Both the position numbers and the translations under genes were made by a program. A stretch of DNA of 53,784 nt from a virus (lineage: Duplodnaviria > Caudoviricetes): positions 1 to 53,784 of IMG/VR virus record IMGVR_UViG_3300021446_000141; one strand, written 5' to 3'. This document shows, piece by piece, positions 1 through 53,784 of this stretch; the first letter of the stretch is position 1, and each line of letters starts with the position of its first letter. The notes beneath the pieces were generated by a model, which saw only the letters and a list, made by a program, of their open reading frames with translations, had not been told where the DNA came from and searched no databases.

Positions 1-160
1 GTTTCAATCCCTTGCCGTCTCCGTCACCATTTCTCACTCCCCTTCAACCGGACCCAGCGGGTCCGTCTTCATTCAAAAGTGAGGAATGGTACCGAAGTAG
101 TATTCATCTAATTGCGGTAGGACAATTACCTGTTGGGTCTCCCCCACTGCGACCGCACCC
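1..160 (-). ncRNA. 5' part of putative large structured ncRNA, copy 1 (runs off window edge)
   Basis: Diverged repeat of ~22161-22317. Helices 26-37/79-90 and CGGACCC-AGC-GGGTCCG (49-65) are kept despite sequence change. Minus-strand promoter at 179-194. Confidence 0.65.
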
Positions 161-178
161 CCAGCTTTGCTGGCCAGG

Positions 179-194
179 TACTTAAGTCTTTCGG
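179..194 (-). promoter_or_regulatory. BRE-TATA promoter of ncRNA copy 1
   Basis: Minus strand reads CCGAAAGACTTAAGTA, about 26 nt upstream of GGGTGCGGTC. Nearly identical at 22336-22351. Confidence 0.7.
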
Positions 195-16765: not shown

Positions 16766-17938
16766 ATGAACGAACCAGAAAAGCGCGAACGAACGGCAAC
16801 CAATACGACTATGAGTGAAACCACCGACGCGACGACCGACGCGGAGAACAGTGCAACCGAATACGGCCGAGAGCGAACGATTTACGGTAACCGGTTGGGT
16901 GTCAACCCCGAAGATGTTCCGCGGAAAACCGACCTTCAACCCAGCGACTTTGAAGGTGGCGACGTTTCCTTCGGGTGGGGCGGACAAATAGCGGATTCGA
17001 CAGTCAAAAAGACCGTCATCCGTGACTTCTACGACTTCGGTGAGTCGTGGGAGACCGTAAAAGCGGAGACTATCAGCACGGCCGAAAAGGCCTTTCATAG
17101 TGGCGCTATCGACAGATTCGAGCGCAACGGCCGTGAAACGCGCGAGCATTTCATGGATACCACCGACCGCGAACGTGAACAGCTAATCGCGTATGCGGTC
17201 GGCGTTCAATTCGCGTCCTATCGGTGCGAGGAGGCGAGGCTCGCGTCAATAGTGCGGAATACAGAGGGTACGGGCCTTAACGCGGCCAAACAGATTGTCC
17301 GTAAAAGCCCCAAAGGGGGCCAAACATTCCCCCTATTAACGGACATGATTCAGTCCGCCCAACACGTCACACTGGCGAACATTCTTGTTGAAGAAGGTGC
17401 AGAAAGCGCGCGCCAGTATGCGATTGAAAACATAAGCGGTATGAGCGAACGCAAAGCGGGCTTTTGGCTCATGCTATTGGGTTTCGGCGAATCGTTCGCG
17501 CTCGACGTGAACGTTCGCGCGATCATTACCCCATACGTTCAAAAAGTCGTGAACATCGCGCCGGACTCAATCGACGCATGCCAGAAATGCAGAAACGCCT
17601 GCATGAATGACAAAAACGACAACCCGAGGATAGACGGCCCGTCAAACAAGATCGAAAACGGGTGGTATGCCGAACCCGGCATTTACGCCCGCAACCGGTC
17701 TTATTTGGGGTATCATATGATTGACCATGTTGGCGAACATGGTCACGGAGCCGAACAATATGCGGATTTGATCATTCGGTTCTTCCGTAACGAACTCGAC
17801 AAAGATTTGAGTCGTCGGACCGCGACTCAAATCATGTTCAATTCGGGTATGTCGTTCACGGAATCGGCGTCGAATGAAGCGCCGAACCGTGATGAAAAAT
17901 TCTACACCCACCAATACTTTTACGACGCAGTTCTATGA
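16766..17938 (+). CDS. HhH-superfamily glycosylase-like protein (divergent, 390 aa)
   Basis: ISGMSERKAGFWLMLLGF...ALDVNV parallels the motif in 6402-7103; start may be 16811. Confidence 0.6.
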   Translation: MNEPEKRERTATNTTMSETTDATTDAENSATEYGRERTIYGNRLGVNPEDVPRKTDLQPSDFEGGDVSFGWGGQIADSTVKKTVIRDFYDFGESWETVKAETISTAEKAFHSGAIDRFERNGRETREHFMDTTDREREQLIAYAVGVQFASYRCEEARLASIVRNTEGTGLNAAKQIVRKSPKGGQTFPLLTDMIQSAQHVTLANILVEEGAESARQYAIENISGMSERKAGFWLMLLGFGESFALDVNVRAIITPYVQKVVNIAPDSIDACQKCRNACMNDKNDNPRIDGPSNKIENGWYAEPGIYARNRSYLGYHMIDHVGEHGHGAEQYADLIIRFFRNELDKDLSRRTATQIMFNSGMSFTESASNEAPNRDEKFYTHQYFYDAVL

Positions 17939-17989
17939 ATTGAAGTCGCAATCTTTTGTTTTTTCGACAGATTAATTCCTCATGGTCTT

Positions 17990-18730
17990 CCATGATATAG
18001 TTGCGGTCAGACTCTGCCACCTACGACGAAAACTATCCCATTGACGACCGTGACATACCTTTCGTCGGACTCTCACGACTGTGACGAAACTATACCAGTA
18101 ACGACCGTGACATAGTTTTGCGCGAAGGTGACTGAGTGTGATGAGAGGTATGTCATGCACGTTCATGAAGAACTTCGTTTTGCAGTGTGCTGGGTGTGTC
18201 GAGAAGTGTGTCATTGAAGTTCATGACATAGTTCGTACCGCAGCCAAAACCCCCTGAATTAACCCCCAGGGGGTAGGGTTGATTTCACAGGGTCAGCCAA
18301 GTTTATTTAGGGGTGGGGCAGCAGTTTTTTAAATATACAAGATGTCAGATCGCTTACAATAGAGCGCGGACTGAATCTAAAAATCTGAGGTGATACACGT
18401 CGAGATTTACCCCTTTATAAGGACCCATACGTACCCGTACGGTCGGATTTCGCCCGGTCTGGTCCGACCCAAGCCCGTGCGGTCGGATTTCGCCCAATCT
18501 GGTCCAATTCGCCCCAGTATGGTCAGACCAGGCCTCGTACGGTCAGACAAAGCCCTCTCGGGCCACAGGGAACACACGCGCACAGTCAGACTCAACAGGG
18601 TACGGCCGGACACAGCCAAGTACGGTTGTACCCTGATTTCGATCTCAGGCCGGCTCAGTCCACTCACAGTAGATTTGGTGCGACCACAAGAGGTAGCCAT
18701 CGTATCAGACCAAGAACAGCGTGAGCGCCA
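17990..18730. repeat. non-coding repeat cluster (candidate origin/terminus region)
   Basis: ~58-bp-period repeat (18025-18057 / 18083-18114), clustered TGACA/TGTCA, AT-rich patch ~18300-18420, 20-bp-period GGTC array 18441-18580. Confidence 0.65.
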
Positions 18731-19032
18731 TCTCAACGCCTCTGAGAGAAACCTATTTAAAGTGGCCGAATCGGCGTAGCCAATTCGCCACATGCTCGGA
18801 GAATGGTCGGTAGATCATTCTCCGGCGGCAGCCACATCCGAATGGGTACAGCCGAAAGAGTTAAGTTGCGGTCGGACCTATATCAGGATGCCGTTAACAT
18901 GGCGATGGCAATCTGGTGCCACGGAGCCCAGTCTGGTGAACTGGGCTCTCTGTTTTTCCCGACGAAGCCGGTTCCCCTCTGGGGTCCGGTTTTGGGGGCG
19001 GGGATGGGGATGGTCGAGGACGGGGCCCGCGG

Positions 19033-19551
19033 TCACTGTTCTCTCAACGTGAGCGAGTCGATGTCATGGTTTGCTATCTCGTAGCACACCCCGTTCTCGC
19101 CCTGGAAGGTAAGGTCCTCGATTACACCCAGGGTGGTATTGCTCTGCTTCGAGTGGGTTTCCTCCGCAGCCACCTCGTAGTCCACCACGACCAGAACCCC
19201 GACCTCCCTCCGGACCTCCAGGGCCACCTTTCGGAAGAGACACTCCTGGTGACACTCGAAACAGATCTCGTGTTCGTGATAGGATTTGATCTGACGGGAC
19301 TTGCTCGGAATCCGGACGAACTCCGAGCATAACTGGCAGTAATACGCCTCGTCCCGGTCGACCTCGATCCCCTCCTCGATGTCCCGATGGGCCGTTTCGG
19401 CCGTATCCTTCATGGTTTCGGCCCGAGAGATGATCTCCTCCAACTCCTCGGCCGTTTCCTGGAGGGATTCCATGTTCCGTTCCTGTTCGAGTTCCTTTTC
19501 CTTTCGACGTACCTCCGCCTTCAGCCGCTCGATTTCCTCTCGTGTGGTCAT
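19033..19551 (-). CDS. coiled-coil plus Zn-finger protein
   Basis: MTTREEIERLKAEVRR coiled coil; CQLC...CFEC. Confidence 0.75.
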   Translation of the reverse strand: MTTREEIERLKAEVRRKEKELEQERNMESLQETAEELEEIISRAETMKDTAETAHRDIEEGIEVDRDEAYYCQLCSEFVRIPSKSRQIKSYHEHEICFECHQECLFRKVALEVRREVGVLVVVDYEVAAEETHSKQSNTTLGVIEDLTFQGENGVCYEIANHDIDSLTLREQ

Positions 19552-19558
19552 ACCTGAA

Positions 19559-19819
19559 TCAGTTGCGACCGGACAGTCTCGCATCGGCCCGACCCTGCTC
19601 GGCCGGCTCGATGGGTTCCCAGAGTTCGACCGCACGGATGTCGGGTCTGTGTCGAATATGTCCCTCCGCCACCAGGATTTCGACCCGTTCCTGCACATCT
19701 ATCATGGGTTCGTTCAGAGTGTGCCCAATGCCCTCGCACAGATGATCGACCTCCATCGTACCGGCCTTCAGTGCGACCACAATCATCTGGTCGATTACAC
19801 GATCCACATCTCGACTCAT
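19559..19819 (-). CDS. small winged-helix-like protein
   Basis: MEVDHLCEGI...VQERVEILVAEGHI pattern. Confidence 0.55.
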   Translation of the reverse strand: MSRDVDRVIDQMIVVALKAGTMEVDHLCEGIGHTLNEPMIDVQERVEILVAEGHIRHRPDIRAVELWEPIEPAEQGRADARLSGRN

Positions 19820-20192: not shown

Positions 20193-21380
20193 CTACTCGA
20201 ACCGCACGATGGCGTGCCCGTCGATCTCCATCGAGTCCACGAAGCCGTCGTAGTTGTAGGCGTCCGCGCCCGAACCGACCTCTCCGGTCGCAGTGGACCC
20301 GTTGATGTAGTCGTTGTCGTTTTTGTTCGCTTCCTCGGTCGTGGTCTTTTCGAGCGAACCCGTGACCGAGAACTCGTACTGTGCCGCCGGACCTGTCCCT
20401 TCGATGATAATGGTTTTCATGTTTCCGTTTTGATTGTAGATTTCCGTCGCAACCGCTGCGTTCACCATACCGGCCTGCTGCCGGTAGGACGATTCGTCGA
20501 TGGGTTGGGCCGTGTCGAGGAGTTGTCGTTTGAGATCCTGACCGGTGAGGCCCATGGTCTCCTGTACGGCCGCAGCCACGCCAGCCGTGATGGGAGCAGC
20601 AGCCGAGGTCCCGCCAAAGTAGCGGTTATCCTCACCAGCCGGCTCGATCACGATGTTGGTGCCAGGTGCTGCCAGATCTATTGCCTCTCCGTAGTTGCTG
20701 AATCCGGCCAGTTCCATGTCACCCCCCTCGTTGAAGGGCTCCCGTACGGCCCCAACGGACAGACATTCGTCGTACACTCCCGGGTAGTTCCACTCGGCCG
20801 GGTCGTCCGTCTCGTTGTTTCCTGCGGACTGAATGATCAGCATGTCCTCGGAGACGGCCCGGTCGACCGCATCCCGCAGGCTCTGGGACTCGTACCTATG
20901 GTACCGCGAGACGTTCAGGATGTCACATCCGTCATCGATGGCTTGGTGAATCGCCTCGTCCAGGTCACTGTCCCACGATCGGTAAGCTCGGATCGGGGTG
21001 TTAATCACCCCGGACGCGTCCTGGTCGTTGTTAGTTTCGCCTGCGAGCGTAAGGGCCACCTGGTCCTCGTGGGTTACCTTGTCCCCACCATGACAGGGGC
21101 TGGTGTCGTCGCCCTTGAGATCATACCCCCCGACGTAGTTGTCGTCCAGTTCGTTGTCCTCACAGTCGATCGGATCGCCCATGATTCCGACCGTGACGCC
21201 CGCGTTGTAGCCGTGGTGTCTCCAGTACGGCTCCATCCCGACCGCCTCCTGGTGCCAGGCCTGGTACTGGGAGTACGTGGGATCGTTCGGTTCCTCGGAG
21301 TGGGCCGATCCGACCCCACTGAACGCGGTGAGGCCGAGCGATGCACCTGCCGCCGTAGCGAGATACTGTCTCCTGTTCAT
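20193..21380 (-). CDS. Tat-exported subtilase (S8 family), divergent
   Basis: MNRRQYL Tat signal; SAGN, YPG, FSNYG, DLAAPG and GTSAAAP motifs; C-terminal beta-rich domain. Confidence 0.85.
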   Translation of the reverse strand: MNRRQYLATAAGASLGLTAFSGVGSAHSEEPNDPTYSQYQAWHQEAVGMEPYWRHHGYNAGVTVGIMGDPIDCEDNELDDNYVGGYDLKGDDTSPCHGGDKVTHEDQVALTLAGETNNDQDASGVINTPIRAYRSWDSDLDEAIHQAIDDGCDILNVSRYHRYESQSLRDAVDRAVSEDMLIIQSAGNNETDDPAEWNYPGVYDECLSVGAVREPFNEGGDMELAGFSNYGEAIDLAAPGTNIVIEPAGEDNRYFGGTSAAAPITAGVAAAVQETMGLTGQDLKRQLLDTAQPIDESSYRQQAGMVNAAVATEIYNQNGNMKTIIIEGTGPAAQYEFSVTGSLEKTTTEEANKNDNDYINGSTATGEVGSGADAYNYDGFVDSMEIDGHAIVRFE

Positions 21381-21804
21381 GCTCCGTGTGTCACACCTGG
21401 GGTACGTCCTCCCAACAGAAAAAACTTACGGCCGTAGAGGGTGTGATCTGACCACACCTGGCAGGGTCTGGCCGGACGGGTATCGTCCGACCACACGAGA
21501 TACATGTATGGTGGTACGGTATTGCATACCAAACTACCAACAACAAATAGTTGCGGCCAGAACCGTCTTGGTATGAGATGACCTTACCCGTACGACCAAA
21601 AGAGTGCGCGCTGCCTGGTGTGCTCGTATAGAAACCTTGTCAGGCCATACCAGTGGTCAGCACGGCCATATGAAGACCGGTACGGCCAGACCAGGCCTCG
21701 TTCTACCGCACCAGGAACCTAGTGGGACCGCACCCAGACCCGGGTGTAACCACACCAGTACCTGGTGCTATCAAACGTAGAATAATTCGGTCATATCTAT
21801 GGCC

Positions 21805-22317
21805 GGGTGCGGTCAAATCCCATGGGTACTGTTGAACTCCTCGGATACTGCGGGAGACCGCCGACCTGGTGTGTTACCAGTGAATGACAGTCGTAAAACG
21901 ACTGTCCTTGCCGTATGGAAGTCGCACAGCGACTTCCAGAGCCTGGCTGTTGCTGGCCAATCAATTCTCCCTCTCCAAAACGACCCAGCGGGTTGCTACC
22001 CCAACACTGGTACGGAGGTCGACCAAAACTATGGAAATCTCCGAACTGGTACGGTCGAACCACCGCCGGCCGTTCCGGAACCAATCCTCTGCCGTGCTGA
22101 AGGACCCACCACGGTCCTTTCCCAGCACGATCTCTTGGGCTACCACAGTTCGTATAGGGACGTTCAATCCCTTGCCGTCTCCGTTGTCATCTCTCATCTC
22201 CTCAACCGACCCACCGGGGTCGACCTCTTTCAAACATGAGAGATAGTACCGGACCAGTTTTCATCTAACTGTGGTAGAACAATTACCTGTTGAGCTTCCC
22301 CCACTGCGACCGCACCC
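21805..22317 (-). ncRNA. putative ~513-nt structured non-coding RNA, copy 2 (complete)
   Basis: 10-bp terminal helix 21805-14/22308-17; 11-bp helix 22140-50/22267-77; several more hairpins; own promoter; paralog at window start; no credible ORF. Confidence 0.75.
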
Positions 22318-22335
22318 CCAGCTTTGCTGGCCAGG

Positions 22336-22402
22336 TACTTAACTCTTTCGGCTCTTGAAATGGTAACGTTTCACATGAGACCTGTACCAAAAGACTTAAG
22401 TG
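22336..22402. promoter_or_regulatory. divergent BRE-TATA promoter pair
   Basis: Minus strand CCGAAAGAGTTAAGTA (22336-22351) faces the ncRNA; plus strand CAAAAGACTTAAGTG (22388-22402) faces the morphogenesis operon. Confidence 0.75.
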
Positions 22403-22488
22403 CCTCTGGGCCAAAGGTTCGATCGCCGGGCGAAACAGTTTTGCTTTGCTCACATCCGTGGAACTTTCTCCACGGTATTCGGTCGCTG

Positions 22489-23154
22489 ATGTCTACGCAT
22501 CTGAATTGGTCTGACTACAGTCCTCCTGATACGACTGGATCTGATCCTGTTCGTGTGGAGGAATCCCATGGTGACGCTACCATAGATCGCAGTCCATCCA
22601 GCGGGTCGCTTTCGGAAGAGCAGTGTTTCAACGACCGGATGTCGTACAGCCCGAACGATGGACGATCCTCGACCCGGACCACCTTCTACGCAGATGACTC
22701 CTCGGTCGACATGACGCCCCGCCAACGGGAACAGTACAGACGTTTGGCCAAATGGAACGATGACCAGTACGCGCCCGATCGGTCGATCCGGAACCTCGAC
22801 GCTAACAAGGAACGGTTCGCGCACACATGCGCCAATGCACTCGAACTTTGCGAGTATCAGCGCGACCGGGTGATCCACATCGTGAACGACATCGACTTCT
22901 CGAAGTACAACCCGGCGGGGCTGCGGTACGAGGAGGTCATCCTCTGTATCATCTCGCTCGTAATGTACGAGGAGGAGGGCCCCAGCTTCGAGGGGACCAT
23001 CCGCGACTGGTTCCGCGAGCAGGCCCAGGTCCATGACATGCTGGATGGGTCCCGACGTGGCAAGGTTAACAAGACGAAAATGGCGGATTTCTGGACGGCA
23101 CGTCAACATCTGCTGCGGAACACGGATCATTTCGATACACAGGAAATCTCATAA
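22489..23154 (+). CDS. TFB/cyclin-fold-like factor (resembles haloarchaeal proteins annotated RNA polymerase subunit epsilon)
   Basis: YRRLAKWN...DRSIRNL...HTCANALELCEYQRDRVIHIV...EEVILCII resembles the TFB B-linker plus first cyclin repeat. Confidence 0.6.
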   Translation: MSTHLNWSDYSPPDTTGSDPVRVEESHGDATIDRSPSSGSLSEEQCFNDRMSYSPNDGRSSTRTTFYADDSSVDMTPRQREQYRRLAKWNDDQYAPDRSIRNLDANKERFAHTCANALELCEYQRDRVIHIVNDIDFSKYNPAGLRYEEVILCIISLVMYEEEGPSFEGTIRDWFREQAQVHDMLDGSRRGKVNKTKMADFWTARQHLLRNTDHFDTQEIS

Positions 23155-23158
23155 CAAA

Positions 23159-24037
23159 ATGGTAAGCGACAAACCACAACCCGGACGGTGCGGTGCGAAG
23201 TGTAGGGATCGGGTCGGAATTGAGGTCTATTCGACCGACGTGAACAGTAGTGTGCCCTGGACCGAGGAGGAGATCGAGCGGATGTGGATGGTCGACCAGG
23301 AGGAGGCCGAGGAACCCGGCAAACTCGAACGGGTCGAGGTAGAACCGGAGTACCAGGAGGCCCGTGAGTACCGATGGGAGGACTGGGTGGTGTCGGACAT
23401 CGAACTGGATGATGGTGAACGCCTCCGGTTCCGGCCGGACGATGACGACTGGCCGCCATATATGAAGTGGTCTACCATGGAGGTCCAGGGACACTGCGAG
23501 AAGTTCCCCTCGCGTGCGACCGACAGTAGTCGTTGTTACATCCATGACGGGCCGGAAGATTCGTTTGACGAGGAGGACCGTTCACGCGGAGGGAAGAACT
23601 CTTCGGGTGGTAATGCGATGAAGCACGGTCTGTACGCACAGCGCGGGAACTACTACCAGTCGGTCTCGAACGAGGACAAACGGTGGATCGACGGTATGGT
23701 GGACTCCTGGGTCGAGAACGCTCCCTTCACGCGGGACAACGACGCCAAGGTCAACAAGCTGTTCCAGGTGGCGGTCGACGAGCACAAGATGTGGCGAGCG
23801 AACAACTACTTTGCCGAGGACGAGAACGACCTCGTGGAGTACGAGCCTTCCTATGACGCCGAGGGCAACTATGTGGGCGACGAGGCCGTGGAGAGTCCGA
23901 TGAACCTGGTATACGACCGCATGGCACGGACTAACATGACCATGTTGAAGGACCTCGGGGTACTGGAGGACCCGGAGTCCCAGCAGGCCGAGGCCACTGA
24001 GTCCCTCGCACAGAAACTATCGGGTGGTGGAGAATAG
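23159..24037 (+). CDS. terS: terminase small subunit (probable)
   Basis: RCGAK...RCYIHDG...GNAMKHGLYA motifs; position upstream of TerL. Confidence 0.7.
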   Translation: MVSDKPQPGRCGAKCRDRVGIEVYSTDVNSSVPWTEEEIERMWMVDQEEAEEPGKLERVEVEPEYQEAREYRWEDWVVSDIELDDGERLRFRPDDDDWPPYMKWSTMEVQGHCEKFPSRATDSSRCYIHDGPEDSFDEEDRSRGGKNSSGGNAMKHGLYAQRGNYYQSVSNEDKRWIDGMVDSWVENAPFTRDNDAKVNKLFQVAVDEHKMWRANNYFAEDENDLVEYEPSYDAEGNYVGDEAVESPMNLVYDRMARTNMTMLKDLGVLEDPESQQAEATESLAQKLSGGGE

Positions 24038-24396
24038 TGCTTCCGAAAGTAACGGAGTTCTCCGGAGGGTACTACCTCGTGGAGGACGTGTACCTCGAAC
24101 CCGACGGGAACGTGCGCCGGCCATCGGTGGAGCCCGCCTTCTACCGGTATCTTCGGGAGGACGTGTACGGGGGTCGGGAGATACCGATTACCGTAAAGTA
24201 CAACGATACCCACTTCGAGCTACATCCGGCTGAGGGCGTGCCGATCGACTCGATCGCTGTGCCCCCTGGGGTGCTCGATCGGTTCGGAGAGGTGGCCCCG
24301 GGCGACGGCACGGTCTTGCTGGCGAGGCCGAGGTCCTCGTACCGTATCGAGCAGATGCGGGCGTACTCGGGCTTCTCTCATGTCGACCCAAACTGA
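24037..24396 (+). CDS. DUF5802-like haloarchaeal protein
   Basis: EFSGGYYL...EP...HFELHP..GVP..SIAVP pattern, recalled from memory and not searched. Confidence 0.55.
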   Translation: MLPKVTEFSGGYYLVEDVYLEPDGNVRRPSVEPAFYRYLREDVYGGREIPITVKYNDTHFELHPAEGVPIDSIAVPPGVLDRFGEVAPGDGTVLLARPRSSYRIEQMRAYSGFSHVDPN

Positions 24397-25699
24397 TTCC
24401 CCTGACGAGGGCACGCTGCGGAACAAACCCTCGGCGTTCGTCAAGAGCGTGGTAGGTGCGGACCCCTTCTGGTACCAGGAGGACATAATGGACGCCGACT
24501 CGGACCGCAAGGTCTTTCGTGCGGGCCGACAGGTCGGTAAGTCCCGTGTAGCCTCCTGGATCGGGCTGCACCAGGCAGTCACCAATTCGGATGTAGACGT
24601 GCTGATTACGGCGGATGCCCAGCGCCAGTCCTCGGAACTGTTCGCCCAGGTGAAAAAGGAGATGTCCATGTCGAACTTCACGGAGGACGACTGGGGGGTC
24701 ACCCGGGACACTGCCACCATGATGGAGTTCGATAACGGCTCACGGATCATCTGCCTCCCGACGGGTCGAGACGGCCAGAAGATTCGGAACTACGCGGCCG
24801 ACCTCATTATCGTGGACGAGGCTGCCTTCATCGACGACACCATCTACGAGGACGTGCTCGAACCGATGACGTTCGTGACGGACGGGACCATGATCCTGTG
24901 TTCGACCCCGTGGGGCCAGAGCGGGTATTTCTACGACAAAGCAAACCACCCTGACTGGTACGAGGTCCACGTCTCGTCGTACGACAATCCTGAGATTTCC
25001 GATGAGAAGATCGAGACGTTCAAAGAGGGCAAGTCTCACGCGACTATCCAGCAGGAGGTCGAGGGCAAGTTCGTCCCCGAGGCGGATAACTTCTTCGACC
25101 CGGACCTGGTACGGGATGTGGTCGGAACCGAGGACGGTACGCCCGTACGGTTCGAGGGCGAGGAGGTCTATCTCGGGGTCGATCCGGCCGACTCGGGTAT
25201 GGACGACACGGCCCTTGTACTGATGGACGATGACGGAAACGTGTTCGACATCGAACACCATCAGCAGATGAAACTACACCAGGGCAAGGAACGTATCAAG
25301 GCCCTGGATCGTAACTACAACTTCGATGAGATCGTGATGGACAAGACCGGTCTCGGGAAGGGTCCTGTCCGGGACCTGGAACACAAGATTGGCTCCTCGG
25401 TGAAGGGGATCAAGTTCACGGTCCCGAAGAAACAGGACATGTACCAAACTCTCAAATTCGATATGGAACAGGACAACCTGACGATCCAGAACCATGACGA
25501 GCTACGGACACAACTGAACAACATGACGGGAGACAAGACCCGATCGGGCCGATACAAGATCCATGCGGGGTCGGGGAGCGATGACCTGGTGGACGCCCTC
25601 GTGTTGGCGAACTACCATGCCGATACGGAGGGATCTCGTGGAATGGCCCGGAACGCGGCCACTGGTGCGCGGTTTATGGGATCGCTTCGAGAACTATGA
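24380..25699 (+). CDS. terL: terminase large subunit
   Basis: Walker A GRQVGKS, Walker B IIVDEAAF, STP motif, nuclease GVDPA...DDLVDA. Confidence 0.95.
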   Translation: MSTQTDSPDEGTLRNKPSAFVKSVVGADPFWYQEDIMDADSDRKVFRAGRQVGKSRVASWIGLHQAVTNSDVDVLITADAQRQSSELFAQVKKEMSMSNFTEDDWGVTRDTATMMEFDNGSRIICLPTGRDGQKIRNYAADLIIVDEAAFIDDTIYEDVLEPMTFVTDGTMILCSTPWGQSGYFYDKANHPDWYEVHVSSYDNPEISDEKIETFKEGKSHATIQQEVEGKFVPEADNFFDPDLVRDVVGTEDGTPVRFEGEEVYLGVDPADSGMDDTALVLMDDDGNVFDIEHHQQMKLHQGKERIKALDRNYNFDEIVMDKTGLGKGPVRDLEHKIGSSVKGIKFTVPKKQDMYQTLKFDMEQDNLTIQNHDELRTQLNNMTGDKTRSGRYKIHAGSGSDDLVDALVLANYHADTEGSRGMARNAATGARFMGSLREL

Positions 25700-25787: not shown

Positions 25788-28457
25788 ATGAAGGTTCCCA
25801 AAACTACGGAGGAGGTAGCGCAACTGTTTCGCGTTACTGACGAGGAACCCGAGCCGAGGGCGACCCGCAAGGCCTCAACGGAGGTCCTCTCGGGGGACTA
25901 CGAGGAACATCACGCCCCGGAGGACGAGATGGAGGAGTACTGGCGGATCTACGAGAACTTCTCTGTCGTCCGTACCTCTATTTATTCGTTCTCACAGGAG
26001 GTGGTCGAGCCGGGCTGGTATGTGGTCGCCTCGAACGAGGAGACTGCGACGGAACTCACCGAGTGGCTCACGGAGTCGGTCACCACTGGGGGGGAGGAGG
26101 GCCAGGACTTTTCGGAGATACTTCGACGGGTGACGGTCCAACGCGAGGTACGTGGGACCGCACTGGTCGAGAAGGTTCGGGGCTCGAACAGTGATAAGAT
26201 AGTCGCACTACAGCTATTGAATCCCGAGACCTTCAAGGTCTATACACAACCTCAGAGTAACGTGCTGGTCAAACCTGATGACGTTGACCTTGACGCCGAG
26301 GAGATCACGGAGAGCCGGCAGAGGCGTCGTCGGGCCTCACGGGACACGGTTCCGGTCACGGATGAGGGTGAGGGGGCTGCCTACGTACAGTACGATCATG
26401 ACCTCCATCGGTGGAACAACCGCGACGAGGTGTTCTTCACCAACGACGAGATCATCAAGTTCACACGGGACGACGATGTGGGCGAGGTGTTCGGTACCTC
26501 CCGAATCGAGTCGGTGGCGGACCGGGTACACGGACTCCAGCAGAAACTGAAGGACAACGACGAGGCCATTGCACAGAAGGCCTACCCGTTCTGGATGTTC
26601 CGGGCGGGTCCCGAAGACGGTGAGGACATGTGGGACGAGGAGGACATGGACGACTTCCTGGAGAATCATGACGCCGAGAAGTTCGGTCCGGGCATGAAGC
26701 AGATGGTTCCGGGAGACCTGTCCCTCGAAACCCACTCGGGCGACACTGCGGACATATACGAGTCCGTCAAGTACGACATCGACCACATCTCGGTGGGACT
26801 CCCGATGCCCCAGTTCTCCCTGGGGGCGTTCGGTGAGGACGTAAACAGGGCCCGTGCGGAGGCACAGGAGAACCGTCTCCGCCGGCAGGTAAAGGACGTG
26901 CGCGGGGAACTGGAGGCGAAGTTCACACCCCTCCTTCGTGAGGTCGCACGTGAGCGGGGTCTGGACGACCCCGACGAGGTTGCCCTCAAGGTGGGTCGTC
27001 CGGGCGAACCCTCCCCCGAGGCCCAGGAGGTCAACCGTAACATGATCCAGTACCAGTCGAACAGTCCGCAGGCCCGACAGGGCCAGCGTGGGCCCCGTAC
27101 GGACCGACGGTTCTCGGCTGGCCCGAACGACACGAATGGCCCGCCCTCGGGTGGTGTGGTCCCACGGGCCAACGATCCGACCACGGACAATCCGGGTGAC
27201 CCTGGATCGTATACGGCTACCCCGGACGCGACCGGTGTGGATGTATCGGGTGGTGGGGACGAAGGGGAGTCCCTTCCGGTCGTGCAGATGTCTGGGGACC
27301 CATCGGGATCGGTTTGGGACGCAGAGGACCCTGGTCTCCAGGAAGTAGAGGAACTTGCGGACCCACGGTATGTTTCGGTCCGATCGGATACCCGCTCTCT
27401 GAAGAACACCATCGCCGAGTATCTGAGGGAGGTCCGGGACGAGACCCTCGACCGTCTGGACGAAAAGGGCTCGTCCCGACAGAAGGCGATCGAGTCTGAA
27501 CGCATCATGAACCGAGTCGTCGCCGATGCGAAAGGCTCGCATGGACTCCAGGCCGAGATCGACGAGGCCATGGAGGAGACGGTCCGTAGGACAATCGACT
27601 CCCTCAACAAACAGTACCACTCGCCCCCGATCGAGACCCACTACGGGGTACGGGCGGAGTCGAACAAAGAGGCCTACAGTCGGTCCGCAATGGCCTCGGT
27701 CGAGGAGATGACGGAGGACCTTCGGCACTACCTCCAGCAGATCGTGGTCCGAGGGGTCCAGAACGGGGAGGACTTCGATCGTATCCAGGAGTCGGTCCGC
27801 GAACGGTTCTCGGACGAGGAGATCGACCGTCGGTCTCGACTCGTGGCACACATGCAACTCAAGAAGGCCACGGAGTCGACCAAGCTAAAGGAGTACGAGG
27901 CCCATGAAGAGGTCGTGGGCGTCGAGGTGGTCAACCCTTGCACCGAGGACACGACTCGATTGTGCCGTAATCTGGCCGGCTGTACGGGTACTGAGGTACG
28001 GGCCTTCTTCGGACCGGACCGTGACGTTGCCTCCCAACTCGAAGCCGATGTGGGGGGCGAGGAGCTATACGATGGGTTCACACCCCTCCCGGCTGCGCCC
28101 CCATATCACTATGGGTGCCGGAGTACCCTGGTCCCGGTCTCGGCGAAGGAGACCGACTCCCTCTCGAAGCATGGCTCGACCATGTTCGAGGAGACCGATC
28201 CGGTCATGACCCCGGAGGGTCCGGGTATCGTGGTCCGGGTCATGGAGCACAACTTCCTGATCCAGCCTAACGAGAACGAGTCCCACAGGGAGGTTCAGGC
28301 TGCACCGGACAACACGGCCTATGTGGTCTCCCTTATGGGCCAAGGTCGGCAGGTGTTCCGAATCGAGGACCTTCAGGAGGCCGACGTGAACTTCCAGACT
28401 ACTGAACCCTCCTCGGATGACGAGGAATCCGACCCCGATAGGGAGGAAGAGAACTGA
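25788..28457 (+). CDS. portal protein fused to MuF/SPP1 gp7-like domain
   Basis: Follows TerL; FGTSRIESV portal-like motif; low-complexity linker; PPYHYGCRS MuF signature. Confidence 0.85.
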   Translation: MKVPKTTEEVAQLFRVTDEEPEPRATRKASTEVLSGDYEEHHAPEDEMEEYWRIYENFSVVRTSIYSFSQEVVEPGWYVVASNEETATELTEWLTESVTTGGEEGQDFSEILRRVTVQREVRGTALVEKVRGSNSDKIVALQLLNPETFKVYTQPQSNVLVKPDDVDLDAEEITESRQRRRRASRDTVPVTDEGEGAAYVQYDHDLHRWNNRDEVFFTNDEIIKFTRDDDVGEVFGTSRIESVADRVHGLQQKLKDNDEAIAQKAYPFWMFRAGPEDGEDMWDEEDMDDFLENHDAEKFGPGMKQMVPGDLSLETHSGDTADIYESVKYDIDHISVGLPMPQFSLGAFGEDVNRARAEAQENRLRRQVKDVRGELEAKFTPLLREVARERGLDDPDEVALKVGRPGEPSPEAQEVNRNMIQYQSNSPQARQGQRGPRTDRRFSAGPNDTNGPPSGGVVPRANDPTTDNPGDPGSYTATPDATGVDVSGGGDEGESLPVVQMSGDPSGSVWDAEDPGLQEVEELADPRYVSVRSDTRSLKNTIAEYLREVRDETLDRLDEKGSSRQKAIESERIMNRVVADAKGSHGLQAEIDEAMEETVRRTIDSLNKQYHSPPIETHYGVRAESNKEAYSRSAMASVEEMTEDLRHYLQQIVVRGVQNGEDFDRIQESVRERFSDEEIDRRSRLVAHMQLKKATESTKLKEYEAHEEVVGVEVVNPCTEDTTRLCRNLAGCTGTEVRAFFGPDRDVASQLEADVGGEELYDGFTPLPAAPPYHYGCRSTLVPVSAKETDSLSKHGSTMFEETDPVMTPEGPGIVVRVMEHNFLIQPNENESHREVQAAPDNTAYVVSLMGQGRQVFRIEDLQEADVNFQTTEPSSDDEESDPDREEEN

Positions 28458-52105: not shown

Positions 52106-53784
52106 ATGACGAAATATGAATGGGTCCAAAACGATCACGAGGAGATCGAGACGGACCTCACGACACTCGATGGCGCACCACGGGACCTCGATCTAACAGG
52201 ACGGAAGGTTAACTATGTACTGAGGCACTACCTCGGCCCAAAGGTGGCAGACAAGGAGGCGAACGTGCAGGGTACGACCGCAAAGGTGGAACTGACCCCT
52301 GACAACCTCTCACGTACCTCCAAACACATGGCCGAGTGGGTTATCACGGGTGGAGAAGACGATCCCACAACACTGCCCAAAGACGGTTCGATCGGGGCCA
52401 AAGTCCGGGCATCCGTGGACAACGGTGGGAACGTAGCCGAGCCCCTCGTCGAGGATAAGACCGTCGATACCCTCACCGTGAACGGTCTAACTGGATCTCT
52501 TACCGATGGGACCGAAATCGACGACCTGGTGGGGACGAACCTCTCCGTTTCGGGTGGTACTCTGAAGGCGACCGATACCGACACACAGCTATCGGATGAG
52601 GACGTACAGGACCTGGTTGCGGGACTACTGAGCGGGTCCGGTGCGACCAGTGTCTCCTACGACGACAGTAATGACTCAGTAACGGTCGAGAGCACCGATA
52701 CGAACACACAGCTATCGGGCGAGCAGGTCGAGGACATTGTGGCCGAACTGGTAGAGGGTTCGGGCGCAACAAGTGTCTCGTACGACGACACGAATGGAAC
52801 CCTTACTGTCGATAGTACGGATACCGACACACAACTATCCGATGAGGAGGTACAGGACGTTGTGGCCGATTTCGTCTTGGCTGGCAACAACGTGGCGGTC
52901 TCATACGACGATAGCGGTAACGTTCTATCAGTATCCTCGACGGATACTAACACACAGCTATCGGATGAGGACGTACAGGACGTTGTGGGCGGACTGGTGA
53001 CAGGTTCGGGTGCGACCAGTGTCTCCTACGATGACAGTAACGGGACCCTTACGGTAGAAAGTACCGATACTGACACACAGTTGTCCGATGAGGACGTACA
53101 GGACGTTGTGGGCGGACTGGTGACAGGTTCGGGCGCAACGAGTGTCTCATACGACGACAGTAATGACGTTCTCACAGTATCCTCGACGGATACCGACACA
53201 CAACTATCCAGTGAGGAGGTAGAGGACATGGTGGCGTCGTACCTGTTGGGCGGGAACAACGTCCAGATCAGTTACGACGATGCAAACGATACGTTAACAA
53301 TTGACGCCAATCACGACCACTCGGGTGAGACCCTGGGCACGTCGTCCTCACCGGTTAGCACCGTTCACGCGGACGTGACCAATGCGGGGGAACTGTCCGC
53401 TGATACGTCCACAACCGCCGAGAAGCCTGTCTACGATGTGGCCTCTTATGGGGCTACCGGGGACGGGTCTACCGACGACACGGCAGCCATTCAGTCCGCA
53501 ATTGACACCGGTATCTCCAACGGCGGTGGGACCGTCTACCTTCCGAACGGGACCTATGTGATTTCGGACGAGCTTGTCGTCGGGGACGGTATCAGTATCG
53601 AGGGCGACGGGCGGGACGCTACTGCGATCGAAACCGATCAGAGTGGGTCCGGAGCGAGCTTCCCTGGCGCAATGATTGCAGGTACTGACGTATCCGATTT
53701 CCACCTCGAAGGACTCTCCATGGTGGGGCCAGGGGTAAACGCCTCCTATGGTGCAATGTTGTTCCGGTCGAGGTACAACATTGC
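52106..53784 (+). CDS. tail fibre/spike adhesin with pectate-lyase-like beta-helix (truncated by window)
   Basis: ATG at 52106, appears open to the window end (absent from the ORF track); YDVASYGATGDGSTDDTAAIQSAI...VYLPNGTY. Confidence 0.85.
   Translation, partial: MTKYEWVQNDHEEIETDLTTLDGAPRDLDLTGRKVNYVLRHYLGPKVADKEANVQGTTAKVELTPDNLSRTSKHMAEWVITGGEDDPTTLPKDGSIGAKVRASVDNGGNVAEPLVEDKTVDTLTVNGLTGSLTDGTEIDDLVGTNLSVSGGTLKATDTDTQLSDEDVQDLVAGLLSGSGATSVSYDDSNDSVTVESTDTNTQLSGEQVEDIVAELVEGSGATSVSYDDTNGTLTVDSTDTDTQLSDEEVQDVVADFVLAGNNVAVSYDDSGNVLSVSSTDTNTQLSDEDVQDVVGGLVTGSGATSVSYDDSNGTLTVESTDTDTQLSDEDVQDVVGGLVTGSGATSVSYDDSNDVLTVSSTDTDTQLSSEEVEDMVASYLLGGNNVQISYDDANDTLTIDANHDHSGETLGTSSSPVSTVHADVTNAGELSADTSTTAEKPVYDVASYGATGDGSTDDTAAIQSAIDTGISNGGGTVYLPNGTYVISDELVVGDGISIEGDGRDATAIETDQSGSGASFPGAMIAGTDVSDFHLEGLSMVGPGVNASYGAMLFRSRYNI
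52571..53308 (+). repeat. six 123-bp (41-aa) coding tandem repeats
   Basis: Consensus TDTDTQLSDEDVQDxVxGLxxGSGATSVSYDDSNxxLTVxS. Confidence 0.9.

Follow-up and report, generated by a model that had tools for sequence, protein, structure and literature searches.

Large structured non-coding RNAs are known from bacteria and their phages, where the few RNAs of this size (ROOL, GOLLD, OLE and raiA) are long-standing puzzles, although some were recently shown to build RNA-only cages. ROOL and GOLLD (PMC5737381; bioRxiv 10.1101/2024.12.08.627333) are 500 nt or longer, multi-domain and non-coding, are encoded by viruses among others, have no assigned function, and retain conserved unpaired segments between covarying helices. 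Other systems bear on what follows: the Racr RNAs, which are RNA anti-CRISPRs or solitary repeat units of phages (PMC10651486); the packaging RNA (pRNA) of phage phi29, a structured viral RNA whose gene lies beside the packaging genes; and the MITE/PATE non-autonomous transposons of haloarchaea, which are a few hundred bases long, multi-copy and strongly folding, with inverted repeats near the ends and deletion derivatives. Here we examine a locus in a tailed haloarchaeal virus that an earlier note, made from sequence alone, had proposed to encode a novel, highly structured RNA of about 513 nt, comparable in size to ROOL or GOLLD, encoded twice and divergent from the packaging operon. We know of no large structured non-coding RNA described for an archaeal virus, and searches of the literature found none, although such searches do not exclude one in print; the lists of halite small RNAs that accompany PMC7002113 may bear on expression.

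The DNA analysed (the window) is a whole IMG/VR virus record of 53,784 nucleotides, IMGVR_UViG_3300021446_000141, estimated to be 46% complete. Its large terminase is 41% identical to that of Halogranum virus HGTV-1, and the small terminase (23033/23159–24037), large terminase (24380–25699) and portal (25788–28457) are recognizable. The element lies in a 1.1-kb gene-free gap between a minus-strand subtilase gene (20193–21380; Pfam Peptidase_S8, E 2e-27) and a plus-strand gene (22489–23154) that heads the packaging operon and has a coding-type codon score of 0.16, whereas the overlapping minus-strand ORF 22450–23130 scores −0.16. The features of the locus, several of which are predictions, are as follows.

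22388–22401, plus strand: divergent promoter word of the late operon (gene 22489–23154, terS 23159–24037, terL 24380–25699, portal 25788–28457), back to back with the RNA promoter and 37 nt away.
22337–22350, minus strand: BRE/TATA promoter of the candidate RNA gene (CGAAAGAGTTAAGT).
22318–22330, no strand assigned: perfect palindrome CCAGC-TTT-GCTGG between TATA and the predicted start, a possible operator by inference.
21805–22317, minus strand: body of the predicted RNA, closed by the terminal helix 22308–22317/21805–21814, with the 5′ end predicted at 22314–22317 and no 3′ end assigned.
22278–22291, minus strand: small hairpin with a GUAA (GNRA-type) loop in the conserved 5′ module.
22140–22277, minus strand: domain I, in which an 11-bp helix (22267–77/22140–50) closes a junction with a long arm (22188–97/22236–45, tip hairpin 22206–12/22217–23) and a short hairpin (22156–61/22167–72); a 22-nt unpaired or weakly paired stretch, 22163–22184, is identical in both copies.
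22093–22129, minus strand: domain II, two stacked 7-bp helices (22093–99/22123–29 and 22100–06/22113–19) with a GACCC/GGGUC-type tip.
21851–22049, minus strand: variable or optional domain holding the two ACTGGTACGG words, a third GACCCA-type hairpin (21982) and three perfect hairpins (21866–80, 21886–906 and 21916–38).
21787–21804, minus strand: 3′ tail that still belongs to the repeated unit, whose left border is at 21787 in some copies and at 21765 in others.
1–194, minus strand: copy B, comprising the promoter (180–193), the 5′ module and part of domain I, cut by the start of the contig.

To determine whether the reported structure is real, we first re-examined each of its elements. All ten helices that the earlier note had listed are uninterrupted Watson-Crick helices of 5–11 bp, including the 10-bp helix joining the two ends (21805–14/22308–17), and the repeated words are where the note had placed them: CTTGCCGT at 21907 and 22171, ACTGGTACGG at 22006 and 22045, and GACCCA-type hairpins at 21982, 22103 and 22208. 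The 513 nt fold far better than dinucleotide shuffles on both strands, at −197.8 kcal/mol against a shuffle mean of −155.6 on the plus strand (z −6.3) and −220.9 against −183.2 on the minus strand (z −5.2), with 0 of 100 shuffles as good in either case. Because shuffles flatter native DNA, we also folded 157 native 513-nt windows of the same contig and regressed the energy on G+C. By this measure the minus-strand fold of the element is the most extreme of all (residual −40 kcal/mol, z −3.1), whereas the plus-strand fold is not in the top eight and lies at about z −1 as we calculate it by hand from the fit. The observation in the earlier note is therefore borne out, with one correction: the conserved unit is wider than 21805–22317, running from 21787 (or 21765) to 22351 and including the promoter.

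We next asked which strand is likely to be transcribed. The virus uses a recognizable BRE/TATA word, the degenerate form of which, CRAMRRNNTTAAST, occurs 18 times in the window against 0.06 expected. Sixteen hits are on the plus strand, 13 of which stand before the small early genes between 5 and 15 kb, and the only two minus-strand hits, at 22337–22350 and 180–193, are at the outer borders of the two copies of the element, in agreement with the minus-strand promoter that the note had claimed. At 11 of the 16 plus-strand hits an ORF-opening ATG lies 36 or 37 bases from the start of the word (one hit has it at +35, one at +40, one only at +26/+32, and two have none), which is the geometry of leaderless transcripts and, applied to the element, predicts a start at about 22314, inside the 5′ strand of the terminal helix. 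Consistent with transcription of the minus strand, unpaired bases are 64% purine on that strand (61 A) but 38% purine on the plus strand, where unpaired C dominates; the minus-strand fold has the stronger signal against native DNA; and most one-sided changes between copies are G-U on the minus strand (see below). Some observations point the other way: the pair 22192/22241 is U-G on the plus strand and A-C on the minus strand, 22269 C>T behaves likewise if its partner is unchanged, and the small hairpin 21789–21804 is better on the plus strand. No clear oligo-T terminator follows 21805 on the minus strand, and a scan for sigma-70 promoters or intrinsic terminators, which is not suited to archaea, returned 0 sites. 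A leaderless start at the predicted 5′ end can be set aside because the GUG frame stops after 10 codons, and a bulge-helix-bulge signal at the terminal helix because that helix is uninterrupted. The palindrome at 22318–22330 occurs without mismatch only at the two copies (161–173 and 22318–22330) and lies within a 45-nt block, covering the promoter and the 5′ end of the RNA, that is identical in both and that shows the highest metagenome depth (see below).

Copy B (1–194) is 84% identical to 22163–22351, and similarity between the copies stops at 22351, one base outside the BRE. To determine whether the fold is conserved, covariation having been singled out beforehand as a point on which the proposal could fail, we built a covariance model from copy A alone (model R1, 188 positions), which finds copy B at 104 bits (E 1e-28). 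On that alignment 93.3% of 90 cells are standard pairs, against 37.5–48.3% when the partners are slid by 1–3 columns; four pairs, in the arm of domain I and its tip hairpin, have changed on both sides; four have changed on one side, always to or from G-U on the minus strand; and six cells are unpaired. In the GUAA-loop hairpin of copy B four of the five pairs and the loop are unchanged and the closing pair is unpaired. With two sequences the shuffle control is weak (31 of 500 shuffles reach the observed value) and the alignment was fitted to the model, so that these changes, which rest on 1.4 copies plus fragments of metagenome variants and on no formal test, are supportive evidence and not proof. 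In further support of a shared architecture, the equivalent arms of both copies, folded on their own, give the same three-tier hairpin.

Six runs labelled halite metagenome, from two studies, contain the region; none is on record as RNA, and expression was accordingly not examined. We placed the contigs of four of these runs on 21300–22500 at 80% likeness or more. The flanks are covered by single long contigs (depth 5 in run X1 and 9.1 in run X2), whereas the element is shattered into many short contigs with variants. Summed depth rises to 37.4 (X1) and 127.6 (X2) over 22284–22324, up to 14 times the flank depth, and to 107 over 22325–22365 in X2, with the rest of the element at roughly 2–5 times the flank depth. 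Loose ends mark a sharp right border at 22351 with at least three different continuations, one of which is copy B's own flank, and a left border at 21787 or 21765, also with several continuations (runs X1–X3). Contigs in three of the four runs join 21814 or 21850 directly to 22050, representing short forms that lack about 200–235 nt, and the contig that matches copy B replaces 22057–22141 (85 nt) by 105 other letters. One contig carries 22103 G>A together with 22116 C>T, a compensatory change in the inner helix of domain II, and the strain variant 21886 G>A turns a C-G pair into U-G on the minus strand; 22096 G>A and 22126 C>T are listed for different pieces, so that their linkage was not shown. 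The unit thus consists of promoter, fixed 5′ module, exchangeable folded modules, 3′ strand of the terminal helix and a short tail, and exists in several diverged copies, so that the note's description of it as encoded twice is an understatement. This also explains why assemblies of this virus break here: the window begins inside copy B, and a near-identical contig from another sample (L003) begins at window position 22380, 29 nt outside the other copy.

A conserved translated ORF had been named in advance as a finding that would count against an RNA gene, and we found none. Five of the six ORFs that overlap the RNA body have negative codon scores, and the sixth, a 90-aa minus-strand frame (21961–22233) that was called as a gene in the record, is weakly positive at 0.07, against 0.16–0.38 for real genes. 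The 146-aa plus-strand frame has no relative, and the 90-aa frame has only itself among 1.84 billion representative proteins and 5.8 billion clusters. By our reading of the alignment, the 12 codons of the 90-aa frame that can be compared in copy B show five replacements and no silent change, and the indels that separate the copies (1, 5, 20, 196 and 235 nt) break the frame.

Comparison with Rfam, likewise proposed beforehand as a test of novelty, gave no family. Rfam 15, which includes tRNA, RNase P, SRP, introns, ROOL, GOLLD, OLE and pRNA, gave 0 matches at gathering score in the whole window; at E≤10 over 21300–22500 the only hit was a chance-level miRNA hit, and scans of short stretches gave only sub-threshold hits, including weak Box C/D or sR16 hits at chance level. 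ARAGORN found 0 tRNA or tmRNA genes. Word, BLAST, nhmmer and covariance-model searches of phage, plasmid, IMG/VR, JGI metagenome and GTDB collections gave only chance hits apart from the near-identical contig. Blastn searches for distant matches of 21700–22400 against phages and of 21765–22351 against plasmids returned no match. Exact words from the conserved 5′ module gave 0 hits in IMG/VR, two hits in JGI metagenome contigs (both 20–24-nt chance matches in unrelated bacterial-looking DNA) and two in GTDB genomes (a Caldilinea MAG and a Thalassarchaeaceae MAG, judged to be chance from the organisms alone, without inspection of the sequences), and a 19-mer from the conserved 22-nt segment gave in IMG/VR two overlapping AT-rich contigs sharing only 20 nt. 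An nhmmer search of the whole gap against the loci of terS relatives and HGTV-1 found only the near-identical contig (L003/L004). Model R1 found only copies A and B in the window; its best other hits, in L005–L009 of the comparison loci, had E 0.23–2.3, and it found nothing in the whole records of four IMG/VR contigs and HGTV-1, an empty answer that proves little for a single-sequence model. The terminase relatives are themselves distant, at most 40% identical among 15 proteins for terS and 41% to HGTV-1 for terL; three contigs with 28–33% identical small terminases were among the DNA searched, whereas the neighbourhoods of the 14 terS relatives were not compared. There is thus no deep conservation, no relative having been found in more distant haloviruses, including HGTV-1.

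Taken together, the results support the interpretation offered in the earlier note insofar as it was tested: with moderate confidence, we conclude that the stretch is a free-standing gene for a structured non-coding RNA of about 0.5 kb read on the minus strand. Our analyses demonstrate the helices, the promoter word, the second copy with its compensating changes, the multi-copy modular family, and the absence of a conserved ORF or of any known family, whereas that the element is transcribed, where exactly the RNA ends, and what it does are matters of inference, no transcript having been seen. In this view host RNA polymerase would start from the BRE/TATA at 22337–22350, at about 22314–22317, and the conserved palindrome would probably let a regulator control it. 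The RNA would close on itself through the terminal helix of about 10 bp and would comprise a conserved 5′ module, two arm domains ending in similar GACCC/GGGUC hairpins, each followed by a conserved purine-rich single strand (ACGGCARRGGAUUG-like), and an exchangeable third domain, in a family, present in this virus or its close kin, in which the promoter and 5′ module are nearly fixed while the inner modules are swapped, deleted or diverged. The anatomy points to a stable RNA, with its ends locked in a helix, a GNRA-capped hairpin in the fixed module, and A-rich single strands conserved between covarying helices. Repeated hairpin-plus-linker units on one scaffold, with paralogues that keep the 5′ module but swap the units, are what one expects of an RNA that binds several copies of a host or viral protein, and their diversity suggests conflict with the host; we therefore suggest, tentatively and without direct support for protein binding, a scaffold or decoy whose modules diversify under an arms race.

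The main alternative, which we consider unlikely, is that the element is a DNA-level repeat, either a non-autonomous mobile element (a MITE or an IS200/IS605-derived, PATE-like element) or a recombination module, whose hairpins act in single-stranded DNA and whose promoter is incidental or a relic. The copy number, the sharp borders with several different flanks, the internal deletion forms and the 10-bp inverted repeats near the ends fit this possibility, and perfect helices without wobble also fit a young set of DNA palindromes. However, the inverted repeats are not at the ends of the unit, as they would be in a MITE: homology runs 34 nt beyond one and 18–40 nt beyond the other, the true ends are not inverted copies of each other, and no target duplication is visible. 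Furthermore, the fold is branched, with many local hairpins and no single long fold-back, one-sided changes are mostly G-U on one strand, and the outer border coincides with a BRE/TATA of the virus's own type. Neither PF07282 (TnpB) nor PF00078 (reverse transcriptase) has a match in the window at E≤0.1, with positive controls detected, but since only 46% of the genome is represented, the question of a partner gene of an IS200/IS605 derivative, omega-RNA or retron stays undecided on these data. A different and doubtful possibility is that the RNA works specifically as a CRISPR-repeat mimic of the Racr kind, trapping Cas6 or Cascade proteins of the haloarchaeal type I-B system. In copy B the tip hairpin and its flanks (41–68, on the minus, transcribed strand) have as their best Rfam match CRISPR-DR24 (positions 6–30 of 30; 16.1 bits, E 0.23), a family that passes its cut-off in only 1 of 14 control genomes, which we assume to be Haloferax volcanii, and the first 22 bases of the window give weak minus-strand hits to two more repeat families through a GGAUUGAAAC end. 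None of these matches is significant: the gathering score is 35 bits, the same site has E 0.52 over the whole window where an unrelated site has E 1.2, the equivalent hairpin of copy A gives no CRISPR hit at E≤10, and the stem is longer than in the repeat model (8 unaligned letters against 5); neither the host nor its repeats are known. Also unlikely is a cis-acting leader or small-protein mRNA, for example a long structured 5′ UTR of the subtilase gene, which lies downstream on the same strand with no strong terminator between 21805 and 21381 other than T4 and T6 runs, and for which the weakly positive 90-aa ORF might be cited; yet other copies have other flanks on that side, the unit ends at 21787/21765, the leader would be about 935 nt long in a virus whose genes are mostly leaderless, and the ORF has no relative and is broken by the 85-to-105-letter swap and by the deletions in other copies. 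A packaging (pac/cos) site or replication origin is least likely, for although copy A lies directly upstream of the terS-terL-portal operon and the genome-wide enriched word GGTACGG occurs in and beside it, several diverged copies sit in different contexts, compensatory changes keep hairpins along the whole length, a gene-type promoter lies at the border, and HGTV-1 and three other terS relatives have nothing similar.

Set beside the described systems, the element resembles ROOL and GOLLD in size and kind only and not by homology: it has no sequence or structure match to them in Rfam 15, its virus infects archaea, no tRNA genes lie beside it, and it is multi-copy, with exchangeable modules and a fixed promoter plus 5′ module. 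Its size and fold are those of such ornate RNAs, but covariation from two sequences plus contig fragments (four double changes) does not settle whether it is one of them, and assembly into multimers was not assayed. Like Racr RNAs it would be a virus-encoded RNA with its own promoter, but it is about ten times longer than one repeat unit, and its resemblance to a repeat is below every threshold and absent in copy A. It lies beside the packaging genes, as does the gene for phi29 pRNA, but is about three times larger, has no Rfam match, has copies in other contexts, and belongs to a virus with a terminase of large and small subunits.

The boldest reading, which we regard as improbable, is that these viruses carry a battery of large decoy RNAs, each a stable scaffold of about 0.4–0.5 kb with a fixed 5′ module displaying exchangeable hairpin modules copied from host RNAs, among them degenerate type I-B CRISPR repeats, that would soak up Cas6/Cascade or other RNA-binding defence proteins. 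If so, this would be the first RNA-based counter-defence known in an archaeal virus, and a new way of building one, with many mimics mounted on one ornate scaffold. Whatever its function, the element represents a real, previously uncatalogued candidate gene family for a large structured RNA of a haloarchaeal virus, with strand and start reasonably supported, and it adds to the puzzle of the large bacterial and phage RNAs a clean candidate from another domain of life, with a recognizable promoter, a fixed 5′ module that can serve as bait, and natural module-swap variants.

Inspection of the remainder of the window revealed that the same 14-base promoter word found at copy A of the candidate RNA element (CGAAAGAGTTAAGT) is also present on the plus strand within 18853-18957, where it is followed at +35 by an ATG that opens a 54-codon W/R-rich frame. 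It is also followed by a 9-bp hairpin with a T5 run (about 18921-18957), and then by a second hairpin with T4. This region may specify a small RNA or a tiny leaderless gene facing the end of the minus-strand gene 19033-19698. A second gap of about 1.1 kb without a convincing ORF is found here (17443-18300, plus strand, within the gene-free gap 17939-19032), the plus-strand fold of which is the most extreme of 157 native windows (z -3.15 at 17785). This gap holds repeated GACGACCGTGACATA-like words and, at 18434-18513, 40-nt direct repeats (repeat family D15).

The 7-mer GGTACGG or its complement occurs 50 times in the whole window, against about 6.6 occurrences that we calculate would be expected, and four of these lie in the gap that holds the element. 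The 400 nt between the element and the subtilase gene (21381-21786), which are single-copy in the metagenomes, carry GGTACGG and GGCCAGAC-type words together with a second GACCGCACCC word at 21725-21734; T4 and T6 runs on the minus strand at about 21596 and 21423 could end a longer transcript. In addition, five tandem copies of a 123-nt unit (66-79% identical over a 228-nt reference; repeat family D1) are located at 52569-53288 on the plus strand, inside the last, open-ended gene of the window.

A near-identical IMG/VR contig of 33,275 bases from another sample (L003/L004) starts at window position 22380, 29 nt outside the element's promoter, and the window itself starts inside copy B, the second copy of the element. 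Assemblies evidently break at this repeat. At 22388-22489 on the plus strand, the promoter word of the late operon has no ORF-opening start codon within 25-60 nt, and the ATG of the first gene is at +101, so this operon seems to have a leader, unlike the early genes.
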